DNA of 64,000 bases, from the NCBI GenBank assembly GCA_964515115.1, contig CAZESB010000001.1, forward strand, positions 48,292-112,291, written 5' to 3'. The notes under the pieces are model-generated. The model was given only the letters and a program-made list of their open reading frames with translations. It was not told where the DNA came from and did not search any database. Within the stretch, counting starts at the first letter, position 1; each line of letters begins with the position of its first letter. Source of the DNA: an uncultured Pseudomonadales bacterium. GTDB taxonomy: Bacteria; Patescibacteriota; Microgenomatia; UBA1400; PJMF01. The translations under genes and the position numbers were made by a program. Shown piece after piece: positions 10,825 through 28,008 of this stretch.

Positions 10825-11298
10825 ATGATGATCAAAGCAATTTTACAATTCTTGCTGATATTTTTTGTCCTGGTTTTGTTGTTGAGTTTAGAGTCGGCTG
10901 TGGGTTTGCCGGTGATTTTTTTGGCGGTTTTGAGTTGGCTCAGTGTCCTTTTTGCCAATCTCCTCTGGTGGCCGCTGATTTTGATCTTGATTTTAAGTTT
11001 TGTGATGGCGGCGGTTTATCAAATTCCTATGGCGGCAGCTTTTATTATTTTAATTTTAGCAGGGCGATTTAACATTAAGGCCAAAGGCGGAATCTTGACC
11101 AAACGGATGCAACGCATTTTACTGACTTCGGCGGCAGGCTCACTGGTTGTTTTGCTAATTTCTGATCTTGATTTAGCCTCATTAAGCCCGCCTACTCTGA
11201 TTTTGCAAAGTGGTATAGTATTGCTGCTGGTTTGGCGGATGTTGGGGCTACCAATCAGCTCAGATAAATCCCTAACCAAACGTCTCGGACGCAACTGA
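10825..11298 (+). CDS. mreD: MreD-like polytopic membrane protein
   Basis: About 157 aa, all-hydrophobic, positioned between mreC and PBP2; stop overlaps mrdA start (ATGA). Confidence 0.5.
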   Translation: MMIKAILQFLLIFFVLVLLLSLESAVGLPVIFLAVLSWLSVLFANLLWWPLILILILSFVMAAVYQIPMAAAFIILILAGRFNIKAKGGILTKRMQRILLTSAAGSLVVLLISDLDLASLSPPTLILQSGIVLLLVWRMLGLPISSDKSLTKRLGRN

Positions 11299-13196
11299 TG
11301 AATCTTTTTAAACAACTATCGCCTAAAGTACTGCTTTTTTTCGCGGTGGCAGTGGCAGTTTTTTCACTTTTAATGTGGCGACTGGCGGATTTGCAGCTGA
11401 TTAACGGCCGTTCTTACTTGACGATGGCTGATGCCAACAGGTTGTTTACAGCCAGAGTGCCGGTGGAGCGAGGGGTTTTTCTTGATCGCTACGGTGATCC
11501 GCTGGTATACAACCAGCCGCGATATTACCGATTGACTGATCCTGAAGCTTTATTCAGCGACAAAGCAGAAATTTCCCGCGAGGAGGCTTTAATTGTCATG
11601 GCGTCTGGTAGCGAGAGTGTGGGTTATGAACTGGAAAGGGAGTTTGTTTTTCCAGCAGCCACGGCTCACGTGCTTGGTTATGCCAGCGCAGTTACTGCCG
11701 ATGAATTAAAACAAGATACCACTCTGCATATTGAAGACAAAACGGGCAAAATGGGTATGGAGCGAGTGTTTGATGAAGTGCTGCGAGGAGTGGCGGGCGC
11801 CAGTTTTTATGAAGTCAATGCTCTTGGGAAAAAACAGAGAAAAGTGGGCGATCGGGAAGGGATTCCCGGCTTGAATATTGACACCACTCTTGATCCATAT
11901 TTGTCGCAAATTGCTTTTGCAGCCATGGGTGCCAAGCGCGGCGCGGTAGTGATTCTTGACAGCGCTACTGGGGAGGTTTTGACTTTAGTCAGTACACCCA
12001 CTTATGATCCGCAGGCTTTAAGCACCAAGTACCTTGATCCTGAACTGGAAAAACAAAGACGGCAGCAGGTGAGTGACTTTTTCACCCATCCGCAGAAGTT
12101 GTTTTTCAACCGGGCGATTAGTGGGGTTTACCCGCCCGGGTCGGTTTTTAAAATTCTCACCGCTTTAGCCGGTCTGGATAGTGGAGCGATTGATGCCGGC
12201 AAGACCGTTGATGATACCGGTGTTCTCGAGATCGGGGAATATTCTTACGCCAACTGGTATTACACTCAGTACGGCAGGATTGATGGGCCGATTGCCTTAG
12301 TGCGCGCCCTGGCCAGGAGTAATGATATTTATTTTTATAAAGCGGCTGAGTGGACCGGCCCGCAGAAAATTGCCGATATGGCCAGGCTTTTTGGCTTAGG
12401 TCAGCCAACTGGAATTGAACTTTCAGGAGAAGCAGCCGGCTTGGTGCCAGATCCTGCCTGGAAAGAACGGGAATTGGGCGAGCGCTGGTATCTGGGCAAC
12501 ACTTTTCACTTTGGGATTGGTCAGGACAACTTGTTGGTCACGCCGCTGCAAGTCGCTCAGTATGTCCAGACTATTGCTAAGCGCGGCACGCAGTGCAGTC
12601 CGCATTTGGTCAAAACTAATCCGCTGGAGGTGGATGATGGCTTGGCCAGCCATTGTAGTGAGTTGGGAGTGGCTGAAGAAAATTTGGCACTGGTTTTGCA
12701 AGGGATGTTGGATGCCTGCAGTTTTGGTGGCACTGGTTTTCCTTTCTTTCCCCACAATCAAAGGTTTAGGCAAGAGGGACTGTCGCTGGTAGAGCAGCTT
12801 AATGAAGGGGCGGTGGCTTGTAAAACCGGTACTTCGGAGTTTGGCGGTGCTGATTCCAGGGGGTACAGGCAGACTCACGGCTGGTTTACCGCTATTGTTG
12901 GGATTAAGAAAGAAGATATTTTGCCGGCGGGCGGAGAAGATTTCCAGTCCGGAAACTGGGATGATGAAGCTCATTCATTTCGGGAGCGCTGGCTGAGCAG
13001 GGTTGATGAAGCTGGTTTCCCAGACAATTTGGTGATGGTGGCTTTGGTGGAAAGCGATGAAATTTCTCCTTATCGCGAAGGTTCAGCCGACGCAGCGCCG
13101 GTGATTAAAGAGATTGTTGACTGGATTTACGGCACTAATATCAGGGCAGAAACACTCTCCGAAGAGGAAATTAGGGAAGCCGGGCTAGCGGAGTAG
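11298..13196 (+). CDS. mrdA: Penicillin-binding protein 2 (peptidoglycan D,D-transpeptidase)
   Basis: N-terminal TM, SxxK in PPGSVFKIL, KTG in ACKTGTSEF; context mreBCD. Confidence 0.75.
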   Translation: MNLFKQLSPKVLLFFAVAVAVFSLLMWRLADLQLINGRSYLTMADANRLFTARVPVERGVFLDRYGDPLVYNQPRYYRLTDPEALFSDKAEISREEALIVMASGSESVGYELEREFVFPAATAHVLGYASAVTADELKQDTTLHIEDKTGKMGMERVFDEVLRGVAGASFYEVNALGKKQRKVGDREGIPGLNIDTTLDPYLSQIAFAAMGAKRGAVVILDSATGEVLTLVSTPTYDPQALSTKYLDPELEKQRRQQVSDFFTHPQKLFFNRAISGVYPPGSVFKILTALAGLDSGAIDAGKTVDDTGVLEIGEYSYANWYYTQYGRIDGPIALVRALARSNDIYFYKAAEWTGPQKIADMARLFGLGQPTGIELSGEAAGLVPDPAWKERELGERWYLGNTFHFGIGQDNLLVTPLQVAQYVQTIAKRGTQCSPHLVKTNPLEVDDGLASHCSELGVAEENLALVLQGMLDACSFGGTGFPFFPHNQRFRQEGLSLVEQLNEGAVACKTGTSEFGGADSRGYRQTHGWFTAIVGIKKEDILPAGGEDFQSGNWDDEAHSFRERWLSRVDEAGFPDNLVMVALVESDEISPYREGSADAAPVIKEIVDWIYGTNIRAETLSEEEIREAGLAE

Positions 13197-14519
13197 TTTT
13201 GCTCGCTGTTGATCCCAGTAAGCACCGCGCCGGCAGAGCAGTTCGTTGGCTTTTTCTGGTTCTTGCATCAGTTTTTCGACGGCAATTTCCAGTAGCAGCG
13301 TGTTTTGTGAGCCTTTTACTAGCAGCAAACTATCTTTTTCTAGCTGTTTTTCCAGGTAGATGGCGGCTTTGGCAGCATCGGGGAACCATTGCACCGGTGT
13401 GTTGGTAGCAGTAATCACCGGCAAGGCGTATTGTTGCATTGCCGGCCCTACCAGGGCAATTTTATCGCCAACTGCGGCCGCTTTTTTAGCCACCCGCTCG
13501 TGTTCAAGTTTAGTTTCCTGACCCAGCTCCCGCATATCACCCAACAGCGCCAGTTTTTTCCCGGGAGCAATCCGGTTAAGCAACTCGAGAGAGTCTAGCA
13601 TTGGTTCGGCCGAGGCATTGTAGGAGCTGTCAAGGATGTAGGCGTCCTTGATGGCTGGAATTAGGGAGGAGCGCCCCCTGGGTAGTTTGAAGTTTTTTTG
13701 CAGTGATTTGACTGCTTTTTCGATGGTGATGTTTTGGCTGAGGGCCGCCGCGAGAGCGGCGGCCAAAGTATAACCGAAATGATCCGGCAAAGCCTGGCCG
13801 GGGAATTGCAACTCATAATTTTTGCCTTGATATTTCAAAATAAAACTAGTGCCACTGAGCTGCTGGCTGGATCTCACCACCTGAACAGTAGCATTTTTGT
13901 CCTGGCCAAAGGTCAAAACTGCAGCTTGAGTTTTCTCGGCGTGCTTAATTACATTGGCGTCGTCGGTGTTAAGAATAGCCGCGCCGTTTTCAGGCAAACT
14001 AGTGATAAGTTTGCCCTTTTCCGTCGCAATTAGCGCCGTCACCTCTTCCTTGCGTTGTTGCGGATCGATAGTTTTTACCAGACTATCAAAAGGCTGGCTA
14101 TGATTCGCACGGGCGTTAAGAAAAATTCCCACCTGGGGTCGCAAAATAGTCAGCAAGTACTCCATGTTTTTGGGTGCGTACGGACTATCAATGGCCATTT
14201 CCGCGATATAAACATCATATTTTTCTTTATTAGTGAGCAACTTGACCGGTGCAGCCAGAACCAGATACAACCACTCCAGGCTAGAGTAATTCTTATTGCT
14301 CAGTCCCAGAATATTCAGGGGAATTCCCGACTCTGAATTAGCTTTGTAGCCTGTTTTAGTCTTGAAATAGTCCTTAAAAATGGCCTCAACCGCGTTTCTG
14401 GCGCTGCTTTTACCTGCCGAGCCAGTAATGCCAATAATCAAGGGCTGATTCTTTTTGAGCTGAATTTTGGCTAAAAACTTAAAATACTCGAGAATTAATC
14501 TGCTGAGCAAAGTTTTCAT
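13185..14519 (-). CDS. murF: Mur ligase, MurF-like (UDP-MurNAc-tripeptide--D-Ala-D-Ala ligase)
   Basis: IIGITGSAGKSS P-loop of Mur ligases; SGIPLNILGL resembles the MurF NxIGxPLTLL motif; 444 aa. Confidence 0.55.
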   Translation of the reverse strand: MKTLLSRLILEYFKFLAKIQLKKNQPLIIGITGSAGKSSARNAVEAIFKDYFKTKTGYKANSESGIPLNILGLSNKNYSSLEWLYLVLAAPVKLLTNKEKYDVYIAEMAIDSPYAPKNMEYLLTILRPQVGIFLNARANHSQPFDSLVKTIDPQQRKEEVTALIATEKGKLITSLPENGAAILNTDDANVIKHAEKTQAAVLTFGQDKNATVQVVRSSQQLSGTSFILKYQGKNYELQFPGQALPDHFGYTLAAALAAALSQNITIEKAVKSLQKNFKLPRGRSSLIPAIKDAYILDSSYNASAEPMLDSLELLNRIAPGKKLALLGDMRELGQETKLEHERVAKKAAAVGDKIALVGPAMQQYALPVITATNTPVQWFPDAAKAAIYLEKQLEKDSLLLVKGSQNTLLLEIAVEKLMQEPEKANELLCRRGAYWDQQRAKLLR

Positions 14520-14564
14520 AGGTTTGTACAGTTTTTACTAGCTAATAGAGTTAGTGTACTATGT

Positions 14565-15740
14565 ATGGTTCGCAAAAGTAATACGAATGATCAAGTGGTT
14601 GAGTTGTCTGCGGCCGAATTGGCGGCGGTGCTAAGTGTGCCCGGCATTGGCAGAGAAACTGTTCGTCAAATCCTGGTTTACCTAAATAAATACGAAATCA
14701 GTTTTGGGGAATTTTGGCGCAAATTGCCAGCTTCAGCCGTAGAATTACTTTTATCAAAAAAACAGCTAGATAGCCTCAAAAACTTCAAAAAAGAACACAC
14801 AATTAGCTCGTATCATTACTACTTAGCAGAGCAGGGCATCAAGTTGATTTCTTATAAAGATATCACTTACCCGCCGTTGCTTTTGACTACCACAGATTTG
14901 CCGCTGCTACTGTTTGCAAAAGGAAACACGAAAATATTGAGTGATCAGCGCATGATTGCCGTGGTTGGCACTAGGAAAGTAACGACCTATGGCCAGCTGG
15001 CAACTCGCAAGCTGGTGACTGAGCTTTGTCTGGAAGAGGCGATTATTGTTTCTGGTTTTATGTATGGGATTGATGCTGAGGCTCACCAAGCGACTGTGAC
15101 TGCGGGTGGCCAGACGGTGGGGGTGTTGGGTTATGGTTACCACCACCTTTATCCCAAGTGGCAGCGGCCGCTTTTTGACAGCATTTTAGATCAAGGTGGA
15201 GTGTTTATTACCGAATTTCCTCCTCATGCCGCTCCCAACGCTGGGCAGTTTCCCTTGCGAAACAGGATTATTGCCGGTATGTCTCAAGCGGTGGTAGTAA
15301 TTGAAGCGGCCGCAAAGAGTGGCACAAGCATCACTGCCGGTCTTGCTCTCGAGGAGGGTAGACTTGTTTGCGCCGTTCCCGGGCCAATTACCAGTCCATT
15401 TTCTGAGGGCACCAAAAATCTGTTCAAACAAGGTGCGCTGATGGTAGGCAGTGGCCGCGAAGTGATCAACGAGCTGGAACTCAGTTATCCGGAATGCTGG
15501 CTGGGTAGTTATTTAGGCCAAAGTTCAAGCAAACAGTCTGGCCATCATGATGCTCCGAAAAAATATGCTCCGGAAAAAACCATCTGTGATATGCTGATAG
15601 CTCAGCCGCTCAGCACCGAAAAATTGAGTCAGCAAACTCAAATACCTGTTGTAGAATTAAACACATTGTTGACACAATTAGAGTTAAAAGGCAGGATTGT
15701 CAGAAATGGCTTGAACTGGACAGTAGTGATCAACCAATGA
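14565..15740 (+). CDS. dprA: DNA processing protein DprA (Smf)
   Basis: Rossmann-like core IAVVGTRKVTTYG...IVSGFMYGIDAEAHQA...GVLGYGYHHLYP typical of DprA. Confidence 0.75.
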   Translation: MVRKSNTNDQVVELSAAELAAVLSVPGIGRETVRQILVYLNKYEISFGEFWRKLPASAVELLLSKKQLDSLKNFKKEHTISSYHYYLAEQGIKLISYKDITYPPLLLTTTDLPLLLFAKGNTKILSDQRMIAVVGTRKVTTYGQLATRKLVTELCLEEAIIVSGFMYGIDAEAHQATVTAGGQTVGVLGYGYHHLYPKWQRPLFDSILDQGGVFITEFPPHAAPNAGQFPLRNRIIAGMSQAVVVIEAAAKSGTSITAGLALEEGRLVCAVPGPITSPFSEGTKNLFKQGALMVGSGREVINELELSYPECWLGSYLGQSSSKQSGHHDAPKKYAPEKTICDMLIAQPLSTEKLSQQTQIPVVELNTLLTQLELKGRIVRNGLNWTVVINQ

Positions 15741-15755
15741 AATGAGAAAGCAATT

Positions 15756-17984
15756 ATGAACTTAGTGATAGTAGAATCACCTACCAAAGCCAGAAAATTA
15801 AGCTCATATTTGGGTAAGGATTTTCAGATAGAAGCGTCGATTGGTCACATTCGCGACTTGCCAAAAAGTGGCGTTAATGTTGATACAGCCAATAATTTTG
15901 AACCTACTTACGAAGTTTCACCCGATAAGAAAAAAGTCATTACCAAACTTACCCAGGCAGCCAAAAAATCGGACAAAATTTACCTGGCCACCGACCCAGA
16001 CAGAGAAGGTGAGGCTATTGCTTGGCATATCAAAGAAACTTTGGAAAGCAAAAAGGGATTAGGCAAGAAAAATTTTATGCGGGCTACTTTCCATGAAATC
16101 ACTAAACCGGCGGTGACTGAAGCTATTGAAAACCCCGGTACGATCAAAATGGATTTGGTGGATGCTCAGCAAGCCAGAAGGATTGTAGACCGGTTGGTGG
16201 GCTACGAAGTCTCTCCGGTATTATGGAAAAAAATTCGTCGCGGTCTTTCTGCCGGCCGGGTGCAATCGGTGGCTTTGCGGCTGATTGTCGAGCGCGAGCG
16301 GGAAATTGCTGCTTTTGTGCCTGAAGAGTATTGGGAAGTCGATGTGGCGCTCAACACCAGCGGCAAACTTGAATTTACTGCTTTCAAAGATGGAGCGGCC
16401 AGGGATGATTTGCCTGAAAGTTTGTTGATTGGCAGGCTGGTTAAACTGAATGGTCATACTTTCAAGCCTACCAAGGAAGTGGATGTTTCTGGCCTCAAGA
16501 CAGTTTTGCCTGCCGCTACTTACGAAGTGGCGGAAGTTGAGCGCAAGCAAAGAAAACGTAGCAGCTTGCCGCCTTTTACCACTTCCACCATGCAGCAAAA
16601 AGCTGCCGTGGTTTTAGGCTACAGCGGTAAGCAAACCATGCGTTTGGCGCAGCAGCTTTATGAAGAAGGTTTGATTACTTATCACCGCACTGACTCCATG
16701 AGTTTGTCACAGGCCTCGATTGGGATGGCCAGGGAGTATATTGTTAATGCGTATGGAACGGAGTACTTGCCGGAAAAGCCCAGATATTTTGCCACCAAAA
16801 GCAAAAACGCCCAGGAGGCTCACGAGGCTATTCGGGTGACTGAAGTGGCGATCAAAGCAGAAGAAATTATGGCTAAAGGCAGCAAGTTTACCAACCAACA
16901 CGTGCGGCTGTATGATCTGATTCGCCGCCGCTTCATTGCCAGCCAGATGCAGACGGCCATCTACGACCAAACTACGATCCTCACCGACGTCAAGCCCAGC
17001 GCCAGCGGCGGCGGCGGCAAAAACAAAGACATCAAGAACGCTCAGCTCAAAACAACTGGCTCTATTTTGACTTTCGATGGCTGGATGAAACTTTTCCCAG
17101 GTAGCGAAGACACACTTTTACCGGAAGTTAAGCAAGGCCAGATTTTAGATTTTGTTGACCATAATTATGCTCAAAAGTTCACTCAACCGCCTGCCAGGTA
17201 CAACGACGCTTCCTTGATCAAAACCTTAGAAAAAATGGGTATCGGTCGCCCCAGTACCTACGCCTCAATTGTTTCGGTGATTGAAGACCGCGGCTATGTT
17301 GAAAAACAGCAGAAGCGGTTTTTTGCCACTCCGATTGGCACGACCGTGACCGATTTCCTGATGGAATACTTCACCACTTTTATGGATTATGAGTTTACGG
17401 CCGAAATGGAAGAAGATTTGGATAGAATTGCCAGAGGAGAGAAGCAGTGGCGCAAGGTTGTAGGTGAGTTTTACAAGCCTTTCCATGACAAAGTAGAAAA
17501 AGTGACTGAAAATGCCAAGCGCCAACAAGTGCCGTACGAAAAAACCGGCCAAAAATGCCCAGAATGTGGAGCAGAGGAGGGTGGAGAAATTGTCATTCGC
17601 ACCGGCCGCTATGGCAAATTTAAAAGTTGCAGCCGTTTTCCCGACTGCAAATTTACCGAAAATATCGTGGCTACCATTGAGGGAGTTAAGTGTCCGCTTT
17701 GCGGCGATGGTGGAGTCATTGTGAAAAATACCCGCTGGGGCAAACAATTTTATGGTTGCAGCACCTATCCCAAATGTGGCTGGGCCAGCTGGCAGGAACC
17801 TAAGCCGGGTGATACTGTGACAGCGGCAGAGTGGGCCGAGTTACAAGCCAAGCGTGAGGAGCGCAAGAAAAAATGGCAAGAGCGTCGTGGCAAAGGCAAG
17901 GCAACCAAGAAAACCGGAACAACTAGAAAAAGCAAAAAATCTGCAACACCCGGTGGCAGGAAAAAAGCCGCCACTGCCGCTTAG
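15756..17984 (+). CDS. topA: DNA topoisomerase I
   Basis: Toprim start MNLVIVESPTKARKL...IGHIRDLP, C-terminal C4 zinc ribbons (CPECG...CSRFPDC; CPLCG...CSTYPKC), Lys-rich tail. Confidence 0.9.
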   Translation: MNLVIVESPTKARKLSSYLGKDFQIEASIGHIRDLPKSGVNVDTANNFEPTYEVSPDKKKVITKLTQAAKKSDKIYLATDPDREGEAIAWHIKETLESKKGLGKKNFMRATFHEITKPAVTEAIENPGTIKMDLVDAQQARRIVDRLVGYEVSPVLWKKIRRGLSAGRVQSVALRLIVEREREIAAFVPEEYWEVDVALNTSGKLEFTAFKDGAARDDLPESLLIGRLVKLNGHTFKPTKEVDVSGLKTVLPAATYEVAEVERKQRKRSSLPPFTTSTMQQKAAVVLGYSGKQTMRLAQQLYEEGLITYHRTDSMSLSQASIGMAREYIVNAYGTEYLPEKPRYFATKSKNAQEAHEAIRVTEVAIKAEEIMAKGSKFTNQHVRLYDLIRRRFIASQMQTAIYDQTTILTDVKPSASGGGGKNKDIKNAQLKTTGSILTFDGWMKLFPGSEDTLLPEVKQGQILDFVDHNYAQKFTQPPARYNDASLIKTLEKMGIGRPSTYASIVSVIEDRGYVEKQQKRFFATPIGTTVTDFLMEYFTTFMDYEFTAEMEEDLDRIARGEKQWRKVVGEFYKPFHDKVEKVTENAKRQQVPYEKTGQKCPECGAEEGGEIVIRTGRYGKFKSCSRFPDCKFTENIVATIEGVKCPLCGDGGVIVKNTRWGKQFYGCSTYPKCGWASWQEPKPGDTVTAAEWAELQAKREERKKKWQERRGKGKATKKTGTTRKSKKSATPGGRKKAATAA

Positions 17985-18015
17985 CCGACTAGCCACTTTA
18001 GCTACTTAGCCGCAA

Positions 18016-18837
18016 CTAAACTGCCATCTCTGCTTTAATTCGGGGATGATGCCGGTAATTTTCCAACTTAACGTCATCCAGGGTGAAATCATCAATGTTT
18101 TTAATCTTGGGATTAAGCCAGAGAGTGGGCAAATCATAAGGCTGGCGTGAGAGCTGTTCTTTGACTTGCTTAAGGTGATTTTTGTAAATGTGGGCGTCAC
18201 CCAAAACATGAATGAACTCTCCCGGCTCCAAATCCGTCACTTGAGCCACCATCTGCAACAGCAGAGAGTAGGAAGCGATATTAAACGGCACACCAAGGAA
18301 CATATCGCCGCTGCGTTGGTACATTTGCAGCGACAGTTTGCCTTTAGCCACAAAAAATTGGAAGAAAACGTGACAAGGCGGCAGAGCCATCTGGTCAAGC
18401 TCACCCGGATTCCAGGCAGAAACAATCAACCTCCGGTCGTAGGGGTCCTTTTTGATCCGCTCGATCACTTCCGCCAATTGATCAATTTCTTTCCCCTCAG
18501 GATTTCTCCAGGATCGCCACTGCACTCCGTAAACTCGGCCCAAATCTCCCTCAAACTTAGCTTTGGGTTTCCAGTAGGGAGCCTCAGCGTTGGCGTCCCA
18601 GATGTGGCAACCCATCTCGTTGAGCACTTTGTTGTCAGAGGTGCCTTTAAAAAACCAGAGTAGCTCAGCCAGGACTTGTTTGAAAGCCAATCTTTTAGTG
18701 GTTACAGCTGGAAAACCTTGGGATAAATCGTAACGGGTTTGCAGACCAAAAACTGCGATAGTACCAACTCCGGTGCGGTCATCTCTGGCGACCCCATTTT
18801 CAAGCACATACTTGAGCGAGTTGAGGTATTGCTGCAT
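18016..18837 (-). CDS. thyA: Thymidylate synthase (ThyA type)
   Basis: LPPCHVFFQFFV catalytic Cys motif, QRSGDMFLGVPFNIASYSLL. Confidence 0.9.
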   Translation of the reverse strand: MQQYLNSLKYVLENGVARDDRTGVGTIAVFGLQTRYDLSQGFPAVTTKRLAFKQVLAELLWFFKGTSDNKVLNEMGCHIWDANAEAPYWKPKAKFEGDLGRVYGVQWRSWRNPEGKEIDQLAEVIERIKKDPYDRRLIVSAWNPGELDQMALPPCHVFFQFFVAKGKLSLQMYQRSGDMFLGVPFNIASYSLLLQMVAQVTDLEPGEFIHVLGDAHIYKNHLKQVKEQLSRQPYDLPTLWLNPKIKNIDDFTLDDVKLENYRHHPRIKAEMAV

Positions 18838-18870
18838 TTTTCCTTTATTTAGCTGTTATTTCTGATGCCA

Positions 18871-19449
18871 CTATTCTTCGCTTTCCGGAAAATTTTCCGC
18901 CATTTTGCTAGCCTGGACTGAAAAATTATTAAAATATTTACTGCCGAGTGAAGGATCGCCATACTGTTTGGCTGCCGGATTTTTCAGTTGGCAAAAGGCT
19001 ATTTGGGCAATTTTCATTTTAGGATAAAGTTTGATGGGCATACTGTTGGTGTTGAAAAGTTCGAGAGTGGCTTTGAGTTTGTTGCCGGGATCAACAAAAC
19101 CAGCGGTGGTATGGATAATCAGACCAAGTCTGGCTAGGCTGCTTTTGCCCATGATGTTGAGGCAGTACTTGGGTCCGACGCCAAAAAAATCATCTGTTAC
19201 AGCCAAGGCGAACTCGCCTGGGTGGAGGACAAAGTAGTCGTTTTCATTTGCCAGAGTGATTTTGGTCATGTATTCCGCTACCGGCTGTTTGGGATCAATG
19301 ATCTCAACTTTGTGTTTGTCAAAAACCAAAAATTCATTTCCGAGCAAGACATCGTAACTGGCAGGTTGAAGCCTAGCCGGATCGAAGTTTTCGATGATAA
19401 TGTCGCCTTCGTTCAGAGCGGCTTGAATATCAATATCAGATAGGTACAT
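18871..19449 (-). CDS. dcd: dCTP deaminase
   Basis: N-terminal MYLSDIDIQAAL and dUTPase-fold motifs; about 192 aa. Confidence 0.8.
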   Translation of the reverse strand: MYLSDIDIQAALNEGDIIIENFDPARLQPASYDVLLGNEFLVFDKHKVEIIDPKQPVAEYMTKITLANENDYFVLHPGEFALAVTDDFFGVGPKYCLNIMGKSSLARLGLIIHTTAGFVDPGNKLKATLELFNTNSMPIKLYPKMKIAQIAFCQLKNPAAKQYGDPSLGSKYFNNFSVQASKMAENFPESEE

Positions 19450-19530
19450 AGCAATTAATATAACGCATTTTAAGTTTTTTTAAACAGTGAGAAGAATAAG
19501 TGGGAAGAATGGGCAGGGGCATGTTACGAT

Positions 19531-20061
19531 ATGGTCATGAACTCATTGCACGTTTTTTTGATTGCTGCTATTACTCTGGATGGTTTTATTGCTCAGACTA
19601 AAAACCAAAAATCTACTCAATGGACCAGCAAAGCTGATGCCGATTATTTTAGAACCAGGTCGAAGCAAGCGGGAGCGCTGGTAATGGGTGCCACTACTTT
19701 TGCCACTATTGGCGGCCCGATGCAGGGCAGGAAAATTTACGTACTAACTTCAAGCCCGGAAGATTACGAGGGCTTTCATCCTGATCAGGTGGAGCCAGTG
19801 GCTCTGCCGCTGGAAGAGTTGGTGCAGAAAGTTAAGGCTGAAGGGTTTAAGGAGTTGGCTGTTTGCGGCGGCGCCAGCGTTTATCATCAGTTCATGGCCG
19901 CTGGTTTGGTGCAGACTTTGTATTTGACGGTTGAGCCGAAGTTGTTTGGCAAGGGCATTAAGCTTTTTTCCGGTAATTTGGCTGAGGTTGAGTTGAAGTT
20001 GAAAAAAGTTAAAAAACTGTCGGATCAGACAATTCTGCTGGAGTATCAAGTGAGAGGGTAA
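19531..20061 (+). CDS. Dihydrofolate reductase family protein (RibD C-terminal-domain type)
   Basis: FLIAAITLDGFIA...ALVMGATTF...RKIYVLTS pattern of the RibD_C/DHFR-like family; placed between dcd and dut. Confidence 0.55.
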   Translation: MVMNSLHVFLIAAITLDGFIAQTKNQKSTQWTSKADADYFRTRSKQAGALVMGATTFATIGGPMQGRKIYVLTSSPEDYEGFHPDQVEPVALPLEELVQKVKAEGFKELAVCGGASVYHQFMAAGLVQTLYLTVEPKLFGKGIKLFSGNLAEVELKLKKVKKLSDQTILLEYQVRG

Positions 20062-20063
20062 TT

Positions 20064-20528
20064 ATGGCGGGAAAGGCAAGTAAAAGTACCGAAAAAATTA
20101 AAGTAGTGATTAAGCGTTTTGATGAATCGTTGCCATTGCCGGAGTATAAGACGGCTGGGGCAGCTGCTTTTGATCTTTACGCCCGGGAGGAGACCACCAT
20201 CCCCGCTGGGGGAATCGGCTACGTGCCTTTGAACATTGCCCTGCAGCTGCCCCCCAACCACTGGGCGCTTTTGAGCGCCCGCAGCTCGTTGCATCAGCGC
20301 GGCCTGATGTTGGCCAACGGCATTGGAGTAGGTGACTACGATTACCGCGGCGATGAAGACGAATACCGGGCAGCTCTCTACAATTTTTCCTCTCAAGACG
20401 TGGTGGTTGAGCGCGGTGAGCGCCTGGTGCAAATGATCATCATGCACCGCGCACCGGTGGAGTTTCAGGAACTGAAACATTTTGCCACTCACAGCCGCGG
20501 CGGTTTTGGCAGCACCGGTCGAAAATAG
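20064..20528 (+). CDS. dut: dUTP diphosphatase
   Basis: AGAAAFDLYAR, GDYDYRG, RSRGGFGSTG dUTPase motifs. Confidence 0.85.
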   Translation: MAGKASKSTEKIKVVIKRFDESLPLPEYKTAGAAAFDLYAREETTIPAGGIGYVPLNIALQLPPNHWALLSARSSLHQRGLMLANGIGVGDYDYRGDEDEYRAALYNFSSQDVVVERGERLVQMIIMHRAPVEFQELKHFATHSRGGFGSTGRK

Positions 20529-20576
20529 CCACCAAGCTCAGCTAAATTCCCTACAACCAATAGTATTTTCCCCCTT

Positions 20577-21611
20577 GTGGTCACACAAGATTTTGTGATT
20601 TCATGTACTCTGTTGCCTATGCCGATAGAACAGCTGTCCCTCACCAGCCTACTTGATACCAATGCCCATGCCGACAACCGGTCTGAAGCAGAAAAAATTC
20701 CTGATAGCCGGCTTAGTTTACTCAAAAAATTGACAGTCTTTTTCCGTCAGGATCGTCCTACCTTAGATACTTATCACTCACTTTACCCATCGCGGCTTTT
20801 TTGGCTGGTGTGGCACGAAGTTAAGGAACTAAACGGTCAGGACAAGTACGGCCTTTTTGCCCAAGAGGAATTTTTGGGCTTGTACCGACAGCAGGAACTG
20901 GCGGACATCATTATTTATTTGCAAGCGGTTTACGACCAATTGGCTGAAAATCCAGATGAAATTATCTTTCTTGATGAAGACTTGATTTTAGAGCGCGCTG
21001 CGACTATTGCTCAAGCACACCATATCGCCGTAGTTGACCTTGACCAACCGCTCAAAGAACCAATAGTTTTAAATCAAAACCAAGAAGCAACCTATAATCA
21101 ACTGAAAAATAATCTCAACTTTTGGGCTACAGTTTTAGATCCTGCTAAAGCTGATTTATGGAACGGACTGAGCCGCACCGAACAGGAGATGGCGCTAAAT
21201 GAAGTCATGTCCACGGCTTTTGTCATGCTGTATCTTTACGGCCTGAACCCACTCAAGGCCTCTCTCGAGAAAATTGCTCGCAATCTTTTGCGCTACGATC
21301 CTCAACTCCTGCAAGATAATTTTTCGGATATTTTGGGTGATCATAGTCTCAGTCAGGAAGAAAAGGACGGACTAATTAACGAGAGATATGAGGCGGCCAT
21401 CGAGGCTTGCAAAGTTCAATTTGATGGTCAGCTGGATAGCCAAGGTGAAAGACCGCAACTCGGAACTCAGCAATTTTATCTTGGCCCTCTGGCTCCGCCA
21501 TACTTGGATTTGTTGGCTTCAGAGAATCAAAAAATTCTCCAGCAAAACTCGCCAAACCATGATAGATTAGAAAGAAATGGTAATAATACTGGAGCCAGCA
21601 AAACTAGCTAA
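20577..21611 (+). CDS. Hypothetical protein (about 330-344 aa) embedded in the dut-tmk operon
   Basis: No recognisable motifs; GTG at 20577 or ATG at 20619; ends 6 nt before tmk. Confidence 0.4.
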   Translation: MVTQDFVISCTLLPMPIEQLSLTSLLDTNAHADNRSEAEKIPDSRLSLLKKLTVFFRQDRPTLDTYHSLYPSRLFWLVWHEVKELNGQDKYGLFAQEEFLGLYRQQELADIIIYLQAVYDQLAENPDEIIFLDEDLILERAATIAQAHHIAVVDLDQPLKEPIVLNQNQEATYNQLKNNLNFWATVLDPAKADLWNGLSRTEQEMALNEVMSTAFVMLYLYGLNPLKASLEKIARNLLRYDPQLLQDNFSDILGDHSLSQEEKDGLINERYEAAIEACKVQFDGQLDSQGERPQLGTQQFYLGPLAPPYLDLLASENQKILQQNSPNHDRLERNGNNTGASKTS

Positions 21612-21616
21612 TTTTT

Positions 21617-22279
21617 ATGTCAAAACTAAAAGCCAAAGCAAATAAAAAAGGTTATCTCATCACTCTTGAAGGCGGAGAAGGGGGCGGCAAAACCACCCAA
21701 ATAGTCAGACTCCGTGACAAGCTCACCAAGGCAGGAAAAGATGTTCTAGTGCTGCGAGAGCCGGGCGGGACGGTGATTAGCGAGCAAATTCGTGAAGTGG
21801 TTTTATCGGCTAAAAATGTCGGTATGGCTTACACCACGGAAGTGCTGCTTTTCCAAGCGGCCCGGGCGCAAATTTATCGTGAATTGGTTTTGCCTTCGCT
21901 GGCAGTGGGCAAAGTTGTTTTGATGGACCGTTCCCGCGACAGCTCAGTGGTTTACCAAGGTTTGGTGCGGGGTTTCGGGAAAGATATGATTGAACAACTC
22001 AACGAAATTTCCACCAAAAATACTTACCCAGATATTACATTTTTACTTGATTTAGAGGCAGAAATTGGGTTGAAAAGAAGGCGGGAAGCCGGTGACGTTA
22101 ACCGCATGGAAATGGAGGATTTGAACTTTCACAAAAGAGTGCGGGAGGCTTATCTGCAACTCGCCAAAGAGGACAAAAAGCGTTGGCACCTGATCGATGC
22201 CTCTCAGACTTTAGACGAAGTTGATGCCGCTATTTGGCAAATTGTGGCTAAAAAACTGGGGCTTAAACTTAAATCTTAA
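21617..22279 (+). CDS. tmk: Thymidylate kinase
   Basis: P-loop GYLITLEGGEGGGKTTQ and LREPGGT lid-like motif. Confidence 0.85.
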   Translation: MSKLKAKANKKGYLITLEGGEGGGKTTQIVRLRDKLTKAGKDVLVLREPGGTVISEQIREVVLSAKNVGMAYTTEVLLFQAARAQIYRELVLPSLAVGKVVLMDRSRDSSVVYQGLVRGFGKDMIEQLNEISTKNTYPDITFLLDLEAEIGLKRRREAGDVNRMEMEDLNFHKRVREAYLQLAKEDKKRWHLIDASQTLDEVDAAIWQIVAKKLGLKLKS

Positions 22280-22338
22280 AATGACCAGCCACCAATAAAT
22301 CCAAAATCAAGTACAACTGGAATTTTGCAAGGAGTTTA

Positions 22339-22947
22339 ATGAAATTACCGCGTTCAGTGCAGCAGCTTATCGAGAGTTTTGAAAAATTACCGGGTGTCGG
22401 GCCAAAATCAGCCCAGCGCCTGGTTTTTTACTTGCTGCACAATCCCGATCATCAGCTGGAGGAGTTTGCCGAGCGATTATTGGCCCTCAAGAAAAATACC
22501 ATTCTTTGTAGCAGCTGCCACAACGTGAGTGAAACCGATCCCTGCAAGATTTGCTCGGATCAGACTCGCGACGATTCTTCGCTGTGTATTGTGGAACAAC
22601 CACTGGACGTTATTGCTATTGAAAACTCTGGGGCTTTTAAGGGGAAGTATCATGTTTTGCATGGAGCAATCGCGCCTCTGAACAATGTAGGGCCGGATCA
22701 GCTTTACTTGCATGATGTGACCAAAAGACTGAAAGGAGTGGTGGAGCTGATTATTGCCACCAACCCCACCATGGAGGGTGAAGCTACGGCGCTTTATATT
22801 AAAGAGTATATTCTTCAATCTGGGGTGGATAAGGTGGCAAACCTGGCTATTAGCCGGATTGGTCACGGTTTGCCGATTGGCGCCGATATCGAGTACGCCG
22901 ATGGCGTCACTCTTTCCAGGGCACTAGATGGCCGGCGAGAGATGTAA
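22339..22947 (+). CDS. recR: Recombination protein RecR
   Basis: HhH start LPGVGPKSAQRL, C4 zinc finger CSSCHNVSETDPCKIC, Toprim domain. Confidence 0.9.
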   Translation: MKLPRSVQQLIESFEKLPGVGPKSAQRLVFYLLHNPDHQLEEFAERLLALKKNTILCSSCHNVSETDPCKICSDQTRDDSSLCIVEQPLDVIAIENSGAFKGKYHVLHGAIAPLNNVGPDQLYLHDVTKRLKGVVELIIATNPTMEGEATALYIKEYILQSGVDKVANLAISRIGHGLPIGADIEYADGVTLSRALDGRREM

Positions 22948-22971: not shown

Positions 22972-24468
22972 ATGCCAAATGAGGGAGAAATAACTAGCCC
23001 CGTACAGCGTCTTAATGAAACAATGCTGCCAGTTCATATTCGGGCGGCTGGTGAATTCGGGATAAAGGATTCGGCAACTGAGGTACACACTTGGGAACCA
23101 AGTAGTTCTAATGAGATTTTACTTGAAAGCACACCTGTTCAGAAGCAAGAGCTTGTTGCCGCATTAACTGATCCAAAATTACACAAAATTTTTCAACACC
23201 AAGGCGAAACTTACATTGTTTTCAAAATTGCTGACCAATTATTTGTTATGCCATCTGGAAGAATACCAGAGTTACAACAGGCACTGCGACAGGAGCGGTC
23301 TGGGTCTAGTTTAGTGAAGAAGGTGGAGGGACTGGCAAGAAAAATCTTTACTCCCGACCAGGGACAGGAGCCTGACAACACTTCTCCTCAAGAACAAATC
23401 AGACTACCCGATAATTTCCCGGTGGGAGTAGCCTCTTTGGCTTCACCTCATCACCTTAATCATGATTCGTCTGCAACGCAATCACTAACTAATGCAGCTG
23501 GAATAAGAGTTCACCGATATTTGGTCATAGATGGTGCTGGTGGCACTGCGCAGATGGTAGCTCTGGCTGAGCGAGACCGAGCCATTCAAGCAAAAATGGA
23601 AGCGGTCCGCAAAAAAGTATGTTTGCATCGGGGTACTATAGTTGAAGCCTTGCTGGCGGCAGACAAGACTAGCAAAACCACTCCAGAACTTATAGATAAT
23701 GATGCCTCGGGGGGAGTGATAGCAGTTGAGTTTAATCCCAAAACAGGCAGGCTTGAATTTGCTTGGGTTGGTGATCCGGTCGCCATGACTTGGTCTCCCA
23801 CAGGTTATCGGCACAACAGAAGAGTAGACGCTCAATCTTCTACTCTTGAAGAACCAAACACTTTGCAAATGATTTCAGAGCAGCATAACCTGGCTTGGCA
23901 AATGAAAAAGTCTAATCCTGCTTTTGCGCCTACCATTGACCTAGATCTAGTGTCGCAAGCAAATCAAATTTATACTTCCGTAGGCGGTAGTAAGCAAAAA
24001 CCAGCCTTGAGACCGGAACAGATTGGTCAATTAAGCATACCGATTAACGAACTTGATGCTCGGTTTTTGCTGCTGATGTCGGACGGCGCTCGCCCAAATC
24101 AAATGATCGCTATGAATAATGAATCTGATCATCGATCAATGGAAGTCAGAAAACTAATTGGAAAATTTGTTGAAATATTCGCTCAGTCGCTCAAAGATCA
24201 ACAGGCTCAGGAAGATTTGTTAAACAGACTAACCAACATTGTTACAGACATGCCGTCTGCTTACTCAGTGGCGGTTGATCAATTATTAAGACATACCGGC
24301 CCGGCTAGTCAAACTGATCAGGTTGAACAAGTTGAGCAGACTGAACAAAAGCGAATAAGTTTGGAGATGACTGCACATTTAATTACCCACCTTGCCAGAA
24401 GAATTGGTGATCAAGATGACATCACCGTGATGATTATTGACCTGAATGAATACCGGCCAACTGCTTAG
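22972..24468 (+). CDS. Divergent PP2C-family phosphatase-like domain protein with unknown about 180 aa N-terminal domain
   Basis: Four PP2C-like motifs in order: YLVIDGAGGTA (xxDGxGG), AWVGDP (xVGDS), FLLLMSDGA (LLLCSDGL), GDQDDITVMIIDL (GGxDNITVxVVxL). Confidence 0.45.
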   Translation: MPNEGEITSPVQRLNETMLPVHIRAAGEFGIKDSATEVHTWEPSSSNEILLESTPVQKQELVAALTDPKLHKIFQHQGETYIVFKIADQLFVMPSGRIPELQQALRQERSGSSLVKKVEGLARKIFTPDQGQEPDNTSPQEQIRLPDNFPVGVASLASPHHLNHDSSATQSLTNAAGIRVHRYLVIDGAGGTAQMVALAERDRAIQAKMEAVRKKVCLHRGTIVEALLAADKTSKTTPELIDNDASGGVIAVEFNPKTGRLEFAWVGDPVAMTWSPTGYRHNRRVDAQSSTLEEPNTLQMISEQHNLAWQMKKSNPAFAPTIDLDLVSQANQIYTSVGGSKQKPALRPEQIGQLSIPINELDARFLLLMSDGARPNQMIAMNNESDHRSMEVRKLIGKFVEIFAQSLKDQQAQEDLLNRLTNIVTDMPSAYSVAVDQLLRHTGPASQTDQVEQVEQTEQKRISLEMTAHLITHLARRIGDQDDITVMIIDLNEYRPTA

Positions 24469-25020: not shown

Positions 25021-25494
25021 ATGACTAATCCAGCAGATGATCAAACTAGTGGTTCGCAGCAAAATTTTCAGCAGACCCAACCGGCTCAGCAAGCTCAGCA
25101 AGACCCGCTGGCGGCGCTTGAGGAGTTATTGAAGCAAACGCAGCAAAATCAACAGTCGCCGCAGAGTGCTCAACCAAACCCACAGCAGCTAGCTGAAGCT
25201 GATGATGAGGTTGGCGGCCTGGGTTCGGACATGGGGACGGCTGACGCTGAGGTTCAGGCAGCAGCTCAGGCTCAAGCCCAAAAACAAGCGGAGTACGAAG
25301 CCATGGCTGCTCGCAGCCAGGCAGAAACGCAGGAACAGCTTGAGGTGCAAAAGCAGGCTTTGGAGGAAATTAAAACTATGCCTGAATATCAAGCCAGAGT
25401 CCAACAAAATCAACAGGAAGCCGAGAAGCAAGAGGAAGAAGCTAATCTGGCTGATGGTTTGCAAATTAGGCAGTTGAAACACGATAAAGTTTAG
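25021..25494 (+). CDS. Q/A/E-rich low-complexity hypothetical protein
   Basis: Gln-rich N-terminal region, AQAQAQKQAEYEAMAAR helical repeats; no domain. Confidence 0.4.
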   Translation: MTNPADDQTSGSQQNFQQTQPAQQAQQDPLAALEELLKQTQQNQQSPQSAQPNPQQLAEADDEVGGLGSDMGTADAEVQAAAQAQAQKQAEYEAMAARSQAETQEQLEVQKQALEEIKTMPEYQARVQQNQQEAEKQEEEANLADGLQIRQLKHDKV

Positions 25495-25522
25495 GGAAAT
25501 TTAGAGGAAATAAGGAATAGCT

Positions 25523-26197
25523 ATGTCTGCACCTAAAGCTGGAGGGCCGGGCGCTCGGGTGAGAGCGGGCGGCGGCTTCAATCAGTTTGCTGACGAACTC
25601 GGTGGTGAACACCTCCAGTCTTCGGCGATGCAGCAGGCCATGCAGCAAAAAGCCGCCGCCCAAAAAACTGCTGATCCCCGCGCCGGTCAAACCTCCCAAG
25701 CCAAAATGCAGCAACAGGCTTTAGCCCAGCAGTTGCAGCAGCAACAGGAGCGCGCCGGCGGCCAGCCTCAAGCTCCCCGCGAAGTTGGTACCATTCCTGA
25801 AGAATTTAAGCGCATGGGCCAAGATGCTTTCCAGGAACTCAAATCATTTTTTTCTTTAAATACTTGGCTGGGAGTGAAACCGGAAACAGACGATCCTGAA
25901 GAAGTAGCCAAGCGCAAAAAACTGCACGAGCGCTGGCAGAACCTGACTGAAGAACAACAAGCGGTTGCCAAGCGCCAGTACCAGGAAGAACTCGAGCGCA
26001 AGCGGGCGGAGGAAGAAGAAGCGCAGCAAAAAAAGCAACTGGAAGAACAGAAAAAAGAGCGTGGCTTACCAATGCCCGCCAGCCCGCAAAAAGGTCCGAT
26101 TGGCCCCGGCACAGCCGGTAAATCTAAAAAGCAAGACGCGGTTCAGCGTCTGCAACAAAGCCGCCAGCAACTGAGTGGTCCAAGCAGCCTGAATTAA
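25523..26197 (+). CDS. Gly-rich N-terminus / Q-rich / KE-rich coiled-coil hypothetical protein
   Basis: GGPGARVRAGGGF, long Q tract, EELERKRAEEEEAQQKKQLEEQKKE; no domain. Confidence 0.4.
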   Translation: MSAPKAGGPGARVRAGGGFNQFADELGGEHLQSSAMQQAMQQKAAAQKTADPRAGQTSQAKMQQQALAQQLQQQQERAGGQPQAPREVGTIPEEFKRMGQDAFQELKSFFSLNTWLGVKPETDDPEEVAKRKKLHERWQNLTEEQQAVAKRQYQEELERKRAEEEEAQQKKQLEEQKKERGLPMPASPQKGPIGPGTAGKSKKQDAVQRLQQSRQQLSGPSSLN

Positions 26198-26257
26198 GTC
26201 CGCTTGCAATCAACTCGCCATCTACTCTAAACTGGAATTAATATTCTCGAAAGTTTT

Positions 26258-26491
26258 ATGACAAATTCACTTTCACCACAACTCGCGACCATTTTAGAAC
26301 GTTTTGGCAAGGAACTACAACAATATCTCGAAGCCGAAATTAAACGCCAAACAGCGGTGCAACTGACTGAACTTCCTGAGTCTTATTCCGCAAATCAAAG
26401 TTTCAAAAGTCAAGATTTTAATGAAGCACTCTCAGAATTATCAACTTTAAGAGATTCGATAATTACTGACCAAATCGCCGACTTAAATTAG
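26258..26491 (+). CDS. Small hypothetical protein (77 aa), paralog of the 29539-29907 N-terminus
   Basis: SPQLATILERFGKELQQYLEAEIKRQ matches ASQLQQILDDFGLDLQNYIREEVARQ of the downstream ORF. Confidence 0.4.
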   Translation: MTNSLSPQLATILERFGKELQQYLEAEIKRQTAVQLTELPESYSANQSFKSQDFNEALSELSTLRDSIITDQIADLN

Positions 26492-26569
26492 TACAAATTA
26501 TCTGGTCATGATAGAATATTGATACTTTTGAACTGAATAAAGAACAAATATAAGTAAAGGAAATTAGAC

Positions 26570-27673
26570 ATGAACGAGATTACCGTCAATCCCCAAGATA
26601 TCCAAGATATTAATGCTGTTGACACCGCAGCGCCAGAAACAAACCAACAGCAAGTGGATCAATCTACCCCCCCCCATCTAGATGAGCCTTCACTGTCTAG
26701 ATCAGAGATGCTCAGAGAGCAAAGATTAGATTTTGCTGCCGGAAAACAAGAAAAGCGAGCTGAAAGGCAAACGCAGGCGCAAGAAAGAGGGGCGCAAAGA
26801 AGAGCGGCGCTAAAAGAAAAGTTTGACCGAGCCTCCAATATTTTTACTACCCAAGTCAATGTCTTAAAAGAAAAAGGTCGTGCTGCTTATGATTTTGCTG
26901 CCGAAAAAGGCGCAGCAGCTTACACTAAAACAACTGAAGCGGTTGGTGCTGTCAGTCAAGAGATAAGCGGTAGCGCACCGGCACGAGCTCTAGATCGAGT
27001 TTTGCAAGTTGGAGTTGAGGGATTTATGTTTGCTCGTGAACAAGCTGCTAGGGCAGATGAAGCTATTGCGCAAAAACTGGATACCGGGATGGGTAACTTG
27101 GTTGGCAAATTCGAGGCTGGGAAGCTTAACTTTCAAGCTGCTAAACATGAAAGAAACCAAGCTCGTTTAGAAGCAGAGCAAACTAAAGCCGCCGCACGCC
27201 TTAAAGATCTAGAAGTTCAATTTAAGGAACACACCCGAAAGATTATTGACTCCGCTCGAAAAGAGCCAGAAACCAAGCGTTATTTTAATCTGGCTAAAAA
27301 TTTGCGCAATATGGCTGGCGAATCGGCTTTGCCTGATTCTAGAGATCAGTTGCTCGGTATGGCCGATCAATTAGAGAACCTTGGGAATGAGGCAGTGAAA
27401 GCAGCAGTAGCGCCGCAGCTGGAAAATTTAAGAAGCGAAACCATAGATATTTACAAGCAATTGAAAGAAGATCTAGACTTTTACACTGAACAAGTTCAGG
27501 CGCTTGAAAGTAGAGCAGCGGAACTCCGCACTGAAGCCCAAGCACGCTTAGGCAATGGCCAAGGTTTGCGGACTTTGAGGCAGGGGGTAGTGGGTATGTT
27601 CACCGACGCGCGCGGGACTACTCAAGGAGCATTTCGTGGTTTGGTAAATAGAGCAAAAGCAAGATTTAGTTAA
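26570..27673 (+). CDS. Alpha-helical / coiled-coil hypothetical protein (apolipoprotein- or phasin-like composition)
   Basis: Amphipathic A/K/E/Q repeats (AAEKGAAAYTKTTEAVGAV..., LEAEQTKAAARLKDLEVQFKE); no catalytic motifs. Confidence 0.4.
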   Translation: MNEITVNPQDIQDINAVDTAAPETNQQQVDQSTPPHLDEPSLSRSEMLREQRLDFAAGKQEKRAERQTQAQERGAQRRAALKEKFDRASNIFTTQVNVLKEKGRAAYDFAAEKGAAAYTKTTEAVGAVSQEISGSAPARALDRVLQVGVEGFMFAREQAARADEAIAQKLDTGMGNLVGKFEAGKLNFQAAKHERNQARLEAEQTKAAARLKDLEVQFKEHTRKIIDSARKEPETKRYFNLAKNLRNMAGESALPDSRDQLLGMADQLENLGNEAVKAAVAPQLENLRSETIDIYKQLKEDLDFYTEQVQALESRAAELRTEAQARLGNGQGLRTLRQGVVGMFTDARGTTQGAFRGLVNRAKARFS

Positions 27674-27699
27674 AGCAAAAATTAACCCAAAGGAATTAC

Positions 27700-28008
27700 A
27701 TGACCAAACAAGACTTACACCAAATGCTGGCAGAAATCGAACTAACCGATGACGTGCGTCAAAACGTTACGGAGGTTATTAACTCCTTTGCCAATGAAGA
27801 ATTAACTGAGGACGAAGTAGCCGAACTGGTGGAATATCTGGATTTGGCTTCAGAAAATGAGGTGGTTTTAGCCGGTGCGCTCAAAGAAGCCGCCGATCTG
27901 GCCGATCAATACGTGACTGACATGGATCGCAATCAAGAAGATTTGACAACCAACACTATTGGCAAAATGCACGACACGTTGGTGCAAGCTACCACTTTGG
28001 CTGATTAA
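27700..28008 (+). CDS. Small highly acidic hypothetical protein
   Basis: 102 aa, D/E-rich (ELTEDEVAELVEYLDLASENE); no domain. Confidence 0.35.
   Translation: MTKQDLHQMLAEIELTDDVRQNVTEVINSFANEELTEDEVAELVEYLDLASENEVVLAGALKEAADLADQYVTDMDRNQEDLTTNTIGKMHDTLVQATTLAD

Follow-up and report, generated by a model that had tools for sequence, protein, structure and literature searches.

A probable all-alpha NTP pyrophosphohydrolase encoded with thymidylate kinase behind a paired NrdR-like operator in Patescibacteria

Introduction

The all-alpha nucleoside triphosphate (NTP) pyrophosphohydrolases, among them MazG, DCTPP1, HisE and the dimeric dUTPases (Duts), form a superfamily known for house-cleaning roles, and in the MazG of Mycobacterium tuberculosis four residues with a negative charge, Glu119 and Glu122 among them, bind Mg2+ (PMC10014863). 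In the dimeric Duts the catalytic motifs I–IV occupy a conserved N-terminal part, a variable middle follows, and motif V lies at the C terminus; in motif V of the phage enzyme phiDI Dut, the Asn N158 holds the deoxyribose in place and the pair K154 (Lys) and R161 (Arg) binds the phosphates (PMC5608427). Canonical dimeric Duts also have a His-Phe couple, at positions +3 and +4 from the Asp of the ExxD motif, that sandwiches the deoxyribose and whose His confers specificity for uracil, whereas phage Duts carry Ala instead of this His and accept dCTP or dITP too; dUDP is hydrolysed by the dimeric Duts but not by the trimeric ones (PMC5608427). Here we analyze a gene, X for short, that lies between the genes for a trimeric-type dUTPase (dut) and thymidylate kinase (tmk) in a 64,000-nt stretch of contig CAZESB010000001.1 (hereafter the window, numbered from its first letter). 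Its product is very probably a highly divergent member of this superfamily, in fold as well as in affiliation. We also consider it probable that X is a Mg-dependent pyrophosphohydrolase of pyrimidine deoxynucleoside triphosphates (dNTPs; of the dUTP/dUDP/dCTP type, a substrate that we infer), and that in Patescibacteria it is expressed together with tmk under a control that senses dNTPs.

The regulatory side of this proposal is best compared with NrdR, whose site consists of two 16-bp boxes with a 15–16 bp linker and the conserved positions C4, A6, A8, T9, T11 and G13 (PMC13584703). In Escherichia coli as well as Pseudomonas aeruginosa, paired boxes are found at ribonucleotide reductase (RNR) operons only, the non-RNR candidates topA and dnaA having a single box (bioRxiv 10.1101/2025.03.28.645925; PMC4409342).

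A hypothetical protein conserved across a set of Patescibacteria gains a testable biochemical role in a known superfamily, and the question arises why a second, dimeric-dUTPase-like enzyme should be encoded beside a trimeric dut and, in every case, in front of tmk. X would add a missing piece of the thymidylate branch in symbionts whose genomes are reduced and which rely on nucleotide salvage, and if NrdR binds the paired operator at this non-RNR operon, the NrdR regulon would be widened.

Results

An exhaustive phmmer/HMMER search of 1.84 billion cluster representatives found a family of 25, including 20 at E ≤ 1e-10, with lengths of 130–356 aa and 22–36% identity to X in the alignment; where the sources name these proteins, they call them 'hypothetical protein'. 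Word-indexed searches, with the single sequence as well as with a profile, retrieved no homologue beyond X itself, identical copies of which stand in 8 contigs from the same organism. A 4-sequence alignment found no related loci in the metagenome and viral collections, and a second alignment led to 3 metagenome loci. X is a real gene, since it is called by gene callers in independent assemblies and 24 divergent homologues retain its specific motifs, and the preservation of particular residues across so much divergence implies that it is under selection.

The open frame runs uninterrupted on the + strand to a TAA stop at 21609–21611, either from GTG 20577 (344 aa) or from ATG 20619 (330 aa, coding sequence 20619–21611 with the stop included). 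An earlier reading made from the letters and their translations (below, the sequence-only reading) had described a leucine-rich, helical protein of 330–344 aa encoded between dut (20064–20528, +) and tmk (21617–22279, +), and in these respects it was correct: leucine accounts for 15.7% of the residues, and the structural model presented below is built of helices throughout.

The same reading found no recognizable motifs, a statement that the family alignment overturns, for both an ExxE...ExxD and a KxxRNxxK signature are present. In the 25-sequence alignment the columns E67, E70, N72, G73, Q92, E93 and D96 are invariant and R46, G78, E217, K218, R221, N222 and Y287 nearly so, and the family as a whole is described by the motifs F-x2-D-R-P, E-x-x-E-L-N-G, Y-R-Q-Q-E-x-[AS]-D-I-x-x-[FY], E-K-x-x-R-N-x-x-K-Y-P and F-D-G...G-x-R-P...G-T-x-x-F-Y. 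Motif 1 of X, F42-x-x-D45-R46-P47 (20742–20759, + strand like the other motifs), has its Arg in 24 and its Phe in 20 of the 25 members, and is aligned with F41..E44-R45-D46 of DCTPP1 by HMMER and with F-D-D-R-I-P of the phiNM1 dimeric Dut by hhalign. Motif 2, E67-V-K-E70-L-N72-G73 (20817–20837), contains the first predicted metal-binding acid pair (ExxE) together with the invariant N72 and G73, and HMMER places it on G-E63-V-G-E66-L of DCTPP1. The second predicted metal-binding pair (ExxD) lies in motifs 3/4, Y89-R-Q-Q92-E93-L-A-D96-I-I-I99-Y100 (20883–20918), which correspond to E95-L-S-D98-V-L-I-Y102 of DCTPP1 and D-E-L-A-D-M-L-A-F of phiNM1 Dut. Four residues after D96 an aromatic is found in 21 of the 25 (18 Phe, 3 Tyr), and three residues after it the family has Ile, Leu, Met, Val, Phe or Trp, never His.

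The C-terminal half contributes a second conserved block. Motif 5 is a helix, E217-K218-I-A-R221-N222-L-L-R225-Y226-D227 (21267–21299), in which, among the 24 members with a residue there, K218 and N222 are kept in all, R221 in 23, Lys or Arg at 225 in 21 and Y226 in 20. It is aligned with K121-M-D-T-N125-R-Q-R128-Y-P of DCTPP1, and its K-x-x-R-N-x-x-R spacing is that of K-M-K-R-N-H-E-R in phiNM1 Dut. The last motif, F268-D-G...G276-x-R278-P...G282-T-x-x-F286-Y287 (21420–21479), is specific to the family: Y287 is present in 23 of 25 members, the FDG...RP part is deleted in 4–6 of them, and no counterpart of the motif was found in the alignments with DCTPP1 or the phage Duts.

When the family profile is compared with the sequences of the Protein Data Bank (PDB), the best matches are to DCTPP1/RS21-C6 (E 6.4e-4 and 6.7e-4), followed by the archaeal pyrophosphatase 4qgp (E 1.6e-3), the RS21-C6 core 2oie (E 0.018) and, weakly, the integron MazG structures 2q73 and 2q5z; X as a single sequence had no phmmer match there. 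The profile alignments put the catalytic residues in register, with E67/E70 on E63/E66 and E93/D96 on E95/D98 of DCTPP1, the aromatic residue 100 on Y102, and K218/N222/K225-Y-P on K121/N125/R128-Y-P. The Pfam MazG-like family PF12643 is matched by 6 of the 25 members, always in the C-terminal half, and its gathering cut-off of 27 bits is reached by one of the 25 only (P0020, 27.8 bits). For the dimeric Duts, we confirmed that the Dut of the S. aureus phage phiNM1 belongs to PF08761 (...EFDDRIPTL...EFFEW...DELADMLAF...KMKRNHER); hhalign aligns the X family to the staphylococcal phage enzymes with motifs I–IV in register (P 8.5e-4, probability 24%), and PF08761 is absent from the matches of all 25 members.

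An AlphaFold2 model of X, computed from the 25-sequence alignment, has a mean predicted local distance difference test score (pLDDT) of 85.3 and a predicted template modelling score (pTM) of 0.80, with residues 30–290 mostly above 90 in pLDDT. It contains 16 helices and no strand, an all-helical bundle like those of the solved superfamily members. Its best structural matches are dimeric dUTPases, although these appear only weakly in the Foldseek list for the PDB (2yay with probability 0.57, 2cje and 5mil_B), and its named matches among viral models are 'NTP-PPase-like', 'MazG-like' and 'nucleoside triphosphate pyrophosphohydrolase' proteins. Both the N half (profile positions 12–102) and the C half (154–206) of X can be aligned with parts of the DCTPP1 module. 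An internal duplication is not claimed, as the comparison of the two halves by hhalign was not significant (E 0.032, probability 1.6%).

Compared with the dimeric dUTPases (PF08761; Campylobacter jejuni 1w2y, Leishmania major 2yay and the S. aureus phage phiDI and phiNM1 Duts), X shares the order of the motifs and the K-x2-R-N-x2-[KR] spacing, and adds the invariant N72-G73 and Q92, the unique C-terminal FDG...RP...GT..FY motif and, in its genomic role, a fixed partnership with tmk. Relative to the DCTPP1 and MazG-like proteins (PF12643; PDB 6sqw, 2a3q, 2oie and 4qgp, and integron MazG 2q73), which give the best sequence matches of the family (profile E 6e-4 to 0.2), the residue at D+3 is aliphatic in both (I101 in DCTPP1); these proteins, however, are single four-helix modules of about 100–170 aa, as against 330 aa for X. 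DCTPP1 and the MazG-like proteins form their active sites by oligomerizing.

The spacer between dut and X is non-coding, 48 nt long if X starts at the GTG and 90 nt long if it starts at the ATG, and contains a conserved element which, when the spacers of 5 loci are aligned, resolves into two partially palindromic 16-nt boxes whose starts are 31–32 nt apart. In the window, box A (CTACAACCAATAGTAT, 20551–20566) matches 4 of the 6 key positions of an NrdR site, and box B (ACACAAGATTTTGTGA, 20583–20598), which starts 32 bp after box A and is separated from it by a 16-bp linker, matches all 6. Box B is also the window's best match to ACACWANANNTWGTGT (1 mismatch per strand), and 20 nt separate its end from ATG 20619. 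We regard this ATG as the most likely start, because GTG 20577 would fall between the operator boxes and because the start codons of the homologues lie 14–23 nt past the second box. A small inverted repeat at 20574–20589, CTTGTG-GTCA-CACAAG with ATTTTGTG behind it, was picked out as terminator-like; it shares sequence with the GTG start candidate and with box B, and so probably belongs to the operator and is not a terminator. A generic promoter and terminator scan stayed at chance level.

Paired boxes are not peculiar to the window. For this comparison we looked at 12 loci overall, including 11 independent ones from relatives (designated L007 and so on) whose X proteins are 24–36% identical in the alignment. 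By a loose, six-position criterion (C4, A6, A8, T9, T11 and G13), paired boxes lie just upstream of X, 29–106 nt before the start codon, in 9 of the 11 loci, the window included, that have upstream sequence, and each box outside the window matches 5–6 of the 6 key positions. The starts of the two boxes are 5901/5933 in L007, 5896/5927 in L008, 5939/5971 in L010, 4874/4906 in L012, 129/161 in L014, 4864/4895 in L015, 2495/2527 in L017 and 2629/2661 in L018. The loose criterion has a high background, with 26 pairs observed against 14.8 ± 3.8 expected (about 15 pairs per 150 kb), and a search for single boxes in the window gave 3 matches with at most 2 mismatches against 4.0 expected, which is not above chance. 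The case for an operator therefore rests on its conserved position and on a strict criterion, a 12-position consensus, which yields 6 pairs in 150.8 kb against 0.16 in shuffled sequences, 5 of the 6 being directly upstream of X. The two-box layout, the linker, the nearness to the first gene and, largely, the key positions are shared with the NrdR operators of RNR operons, whereas the operon here encodes an NTP-PPase-like protein and a thymidylate kinase. From this resemblance, we think it probable that the boxes upstream of X are bound by NrdR.

On the other side of X, the spacer to tmk is only 5 nt (TAA 21609–21611, ATG 21617). The sequence-only reading had X stopping just before tmk and translationally sandwiched between its neighbours; this is true toward tmk but not toward dut, where the operator-like element intervenes. 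It had also proposed to look for co-conservation with both genes. The gene after X could be read in 11 loci and is tmk in 9 (the window, L007, L008, L009, L010, L012, L013, L014 and L015/L020) and a thymidine kinase gene, tdk, in the other 2, with tmk behind it in L017 and the contig ending after it in L016; the sequence of L018 ends inside X. Between X and the gene after it there is anything from a 4-nt overlap to a gap of 63 nt. Upstream, dut is directly before X in only part of the loci (the window, L007, L008, L010, L014 and L017). A dihydrofolate reductase (DHFR)-like gene takes that place in L013 and L015/L020, an unidentified 437-aa open reading frame (ORF) stands between such a gene and X in L018, and in L009 and L012 the gene before X is a divergent purB, dut and the DHFR-like gene lying some 3 kb away. 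Because the upstream genes vary and tmk or tdk is constant, the thymidine-nucleotide kinase step is the only invariant partner of X.

The loci also carry dut, dcd or dCMP deaminase, thyA and DHFR-like genes. The route to dUMP runs through dcd in the window, L010 and L017 and through dCMP deaminase in L007, L008 and L015/L020, and in L015/L020 the dut slot is empty. The long-range order of L020 is that of the window (PBP2, dprA, topA...thyA, DHFR, X, tmk), apart from the empty dut slot and an added YfbR-type dNMP nucleotidase. X might be the sole dUTPase-like enzyme of the L015/L020 cluster.

Discussion

The conservation pattern gives good support to two-metal hydrolysis of a deoxynucleoside tri- or diphosphate by X, and we consider X likely to be an active NTP pyrophosphatase; that its substrate is dUTP, dUDP or dCTP is a closer matter, to which we give even odds at most. 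The layout follows that of the dimeric dUTPases, with an N-terminal helical module (about residues 30–135) carrying E67, E70, E93 and D96, a variable helical middle, and a C-terminal module (about residues 150–230) that ends in the K218-x2-R221-N222-x2-K/R225 helix and is followed by the FDG...RP...GT..FY extension. The four acids would bind Mg2+, K218, R221 and K/R225 would hold the phosphates, and N222 and F/Y100 would hold the deoxyribose. A pyrimidine dNTP or diphosphate, of the dUTP/dUDP and/or dCTP type as for the 'd(C/U)TPases', would be converted to the monophosphate (with release of pyrophosphate), and the reaction would supply or clean the branch from dUMP to dTMP and dTDP. X would be co-transcribed, and probably translationally coupled, with tmk, and the paired NrdR-type operator would switch both genes on when dNTPs are scarce, which would suit an enzyme that delivers dUMP or dCMP to the synthesis of dTTP.

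Each of the gene contexts seen would give a bifunctional d(C/U)TPase/dUDPase a sensible role: it would complement the trimeric Dut, for which dUDP is not a substrate, provide dCMP for dCMP deaminase, and stand in for dut where that gene is absent from the cluster. A bolder version, which we find doubtful, is that X is a Patescibacteria-specific d(C/U)TPase/dUDPase and an obligatory partner of Tmk, and that the X-tmk operon is a direct NrdR target with a full paired operator. X might then remove dUDP or dUTP arising from a side reaction of Tmk on dUMP, and might be a source of dCMP or dUMP in loci that lack dut or dcd, such as L015/L020. If true, X-tmk would be the first operon outside the RNR genes to have the canonical two-box NrdR architecture. 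The superfamily itself is known; the X family stands outside the curated libraries that we searched, with extra motifs of its own, a fixed tmk partnership and a paired NrdR-type operator.

Several observations weigh against a pyrimidine dNTP pyrophosphohydrolase under NrdR control. X itself has no match in Pfam or NCBIfam, every sequence link of its family to a known one is marginal (E of about 1e-3; hhalign probability 24%), and a Foldseek search of the model against the PDB returned nothing at E ≤ 1e-3. In the register given by DELADMLAF of phiNM1 Dut, the uracil-specifying His of the dimeric dUTPases is replaced by Ile, Leu, Val or Met in the X family; the phage Duts lack this His as well. 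Nor do the Trp residues of the DCTPP1 base pocket have a conserved counterpart in the family alignments, so that these residues point to no particular base for X. A functional-looking trimeric dut adjoins X in most loci, where a plain dUTPase would be redundant. Finally, a regular-expression search for NrdR-like Zn-ribbon ORFs found no nrdR gene in the approximately 150 kb formed by the window and the fetched loci.

The main alternative is that X has the same fold and chemistry but serves as a house-cleaning enzyme for non-canonical nucleotides, such as 5-methyl-, 5-hydroxy- or 5-halo-dCTP, dITP or oxidized dNTPs, as DCTPP1 and mycobacterial MazG do, instead of supplying dUMP or dCMP. The superfamily is known for such roles (PMC10014863), DCTPP1 and the MazG-like proteins come closest in sequence, the residue at D+3 is hydrophobic like I101 of DCTPP1 and not the His of the dimeric dUTPases, and most loci have a separate trimeric dut. 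The strict linkage to tmk or tdk and the NrdR-type operator, on the other hand, suggest co-regulation with dNTP synthesis and not stress sanitizing, and X is kept in L015/L020 despite the empty dut slot. We consider a house-cleaning enzyme improbable. More improbable still is a non-catalytic, nucleotide-binding version of the fold, acting as a sensor, regulator or scaffold for thymidylate kinase. It would account for the constant adjacency of tmk, with genes often overlapping or nearly abutting, and for a C-terminal motif that has no counterpart in known enzymes; there is also precedent in the dimeric Duts that moonlight as de-repressors (PMC5608427) and in phage Duts that double as signalling proteins. 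However, all 25 members keep the four metal-binding acids unchanged and the Lys/Arg/Asn helix is kept in 23–24 of 24, at only 22–36% identity to X, which is the signature of a maintained active site.

The sequence-only reading had offered yet another identity, a cryptic delta or delta-prime subunit of DNA polymerase III (HolA/HolB). Its size of about 330 aa and the proximity of tmk are all that speak for it; in E. coli and B. subtilis, holB follows tmk. The confident model of X is all-helical, without a beta strand, and so excludes the AAA+-like alpha/beta domain of such a subunit, its best structural matches lie elsewhere, and neither X nor any of the 25 members matches the DNA_pol3_delta or delta-prime Pfam models at E ≤ 1. 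By the standard that the sequence-only reading itself set, this identity is refuted, and we give it practically no credence. A scan of the 10 window ORFs of 294–390 aa found no HolA/HolB candidate either. The second suggestion of that reading, a novel factor associated with the dNTP pool, stands in substance, given the constant linkage to tmk (or tdk-tmk) and the NrdR-type operator.

Further observations on the locus

The window places X and tmk in a longer run of genes: topA (15756–17984, +), thyA (18016–18837, −), dcd (18871–19449, −), a DHFR/RibD_C-type reductase gene (19531–20061, +), dut (PF00692, E 7.5e-21; transcribed separately or located upstream of the operator), X, tmk (PF02223, E 1.4e-44) and recR (22339–22947, +). 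The gene in the folA position of this cluster encodes 176 aa and matches RibD_C (E 6.6e-20) better than DHFR_1 (E 1.8e-14); a RibD_C-type reductase occupies the place of dihydrofolate reductase. The synteny of the window region 11298–22947 with L010 and L020 extends over PBP2, dprA, topA, thyA, dcd or dCMP deaminase, the DHFR-like gene, dut, X, tmk, recR and hpf, and is kept even though the X proteins are only 24–36% identical.

Among the relatives, the thymidine kinase (PF00265) genes that follow X come from two metagenome loci (region 2565–4763 of L017, with tdk between X and tmk; region 57–1462 of L016, with X and tdk), and in L016 X and tdk overlap by 4 nt. The L015/L020 cluster (5916–11665 in L020) has a dCMP deaminase, a HIT-like ORF, thyA and a YfbR-type HD 5'-deoxynucleotidase. 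The dCMP deaminase-like proteins of L007 (3348–4184, −) and L015 (1488–2318) are about 277 aa long, with the deaminase domain confined to residues 153–252 or so; a region of about 150 aa precedes the domain, and the genes are paired with one for a CTP_transf_like nucleotidyltransferase. The records of L007 and L009 (CAYVXV010000001.1 and CAZVBO010000002.1) are labelled 'uncultured Pseudomonadales bacterium', a label that looks doubtful; their gene order and X family are shared with a Patescibacteria metagenome-assembled genome (L008, UBA1370).

Beyond recR, an ORF at 22972–24468 (+) encodes 498 aa without a Pfam or PDB sequence match; by eye it contains PP2C-like strings (VIDGAGG, LLMSDG and DDITVMIIDL), and it is not related to the 351-aa ORF found between tmk and recR in L010. 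Downstream of hpf, a run of ORFs at 25021–28008 (+) encodes products of 157, 224 and 367 aa, which had no Pfam match when scanned, and also includes a 102-aa ORF at 27700–28008.

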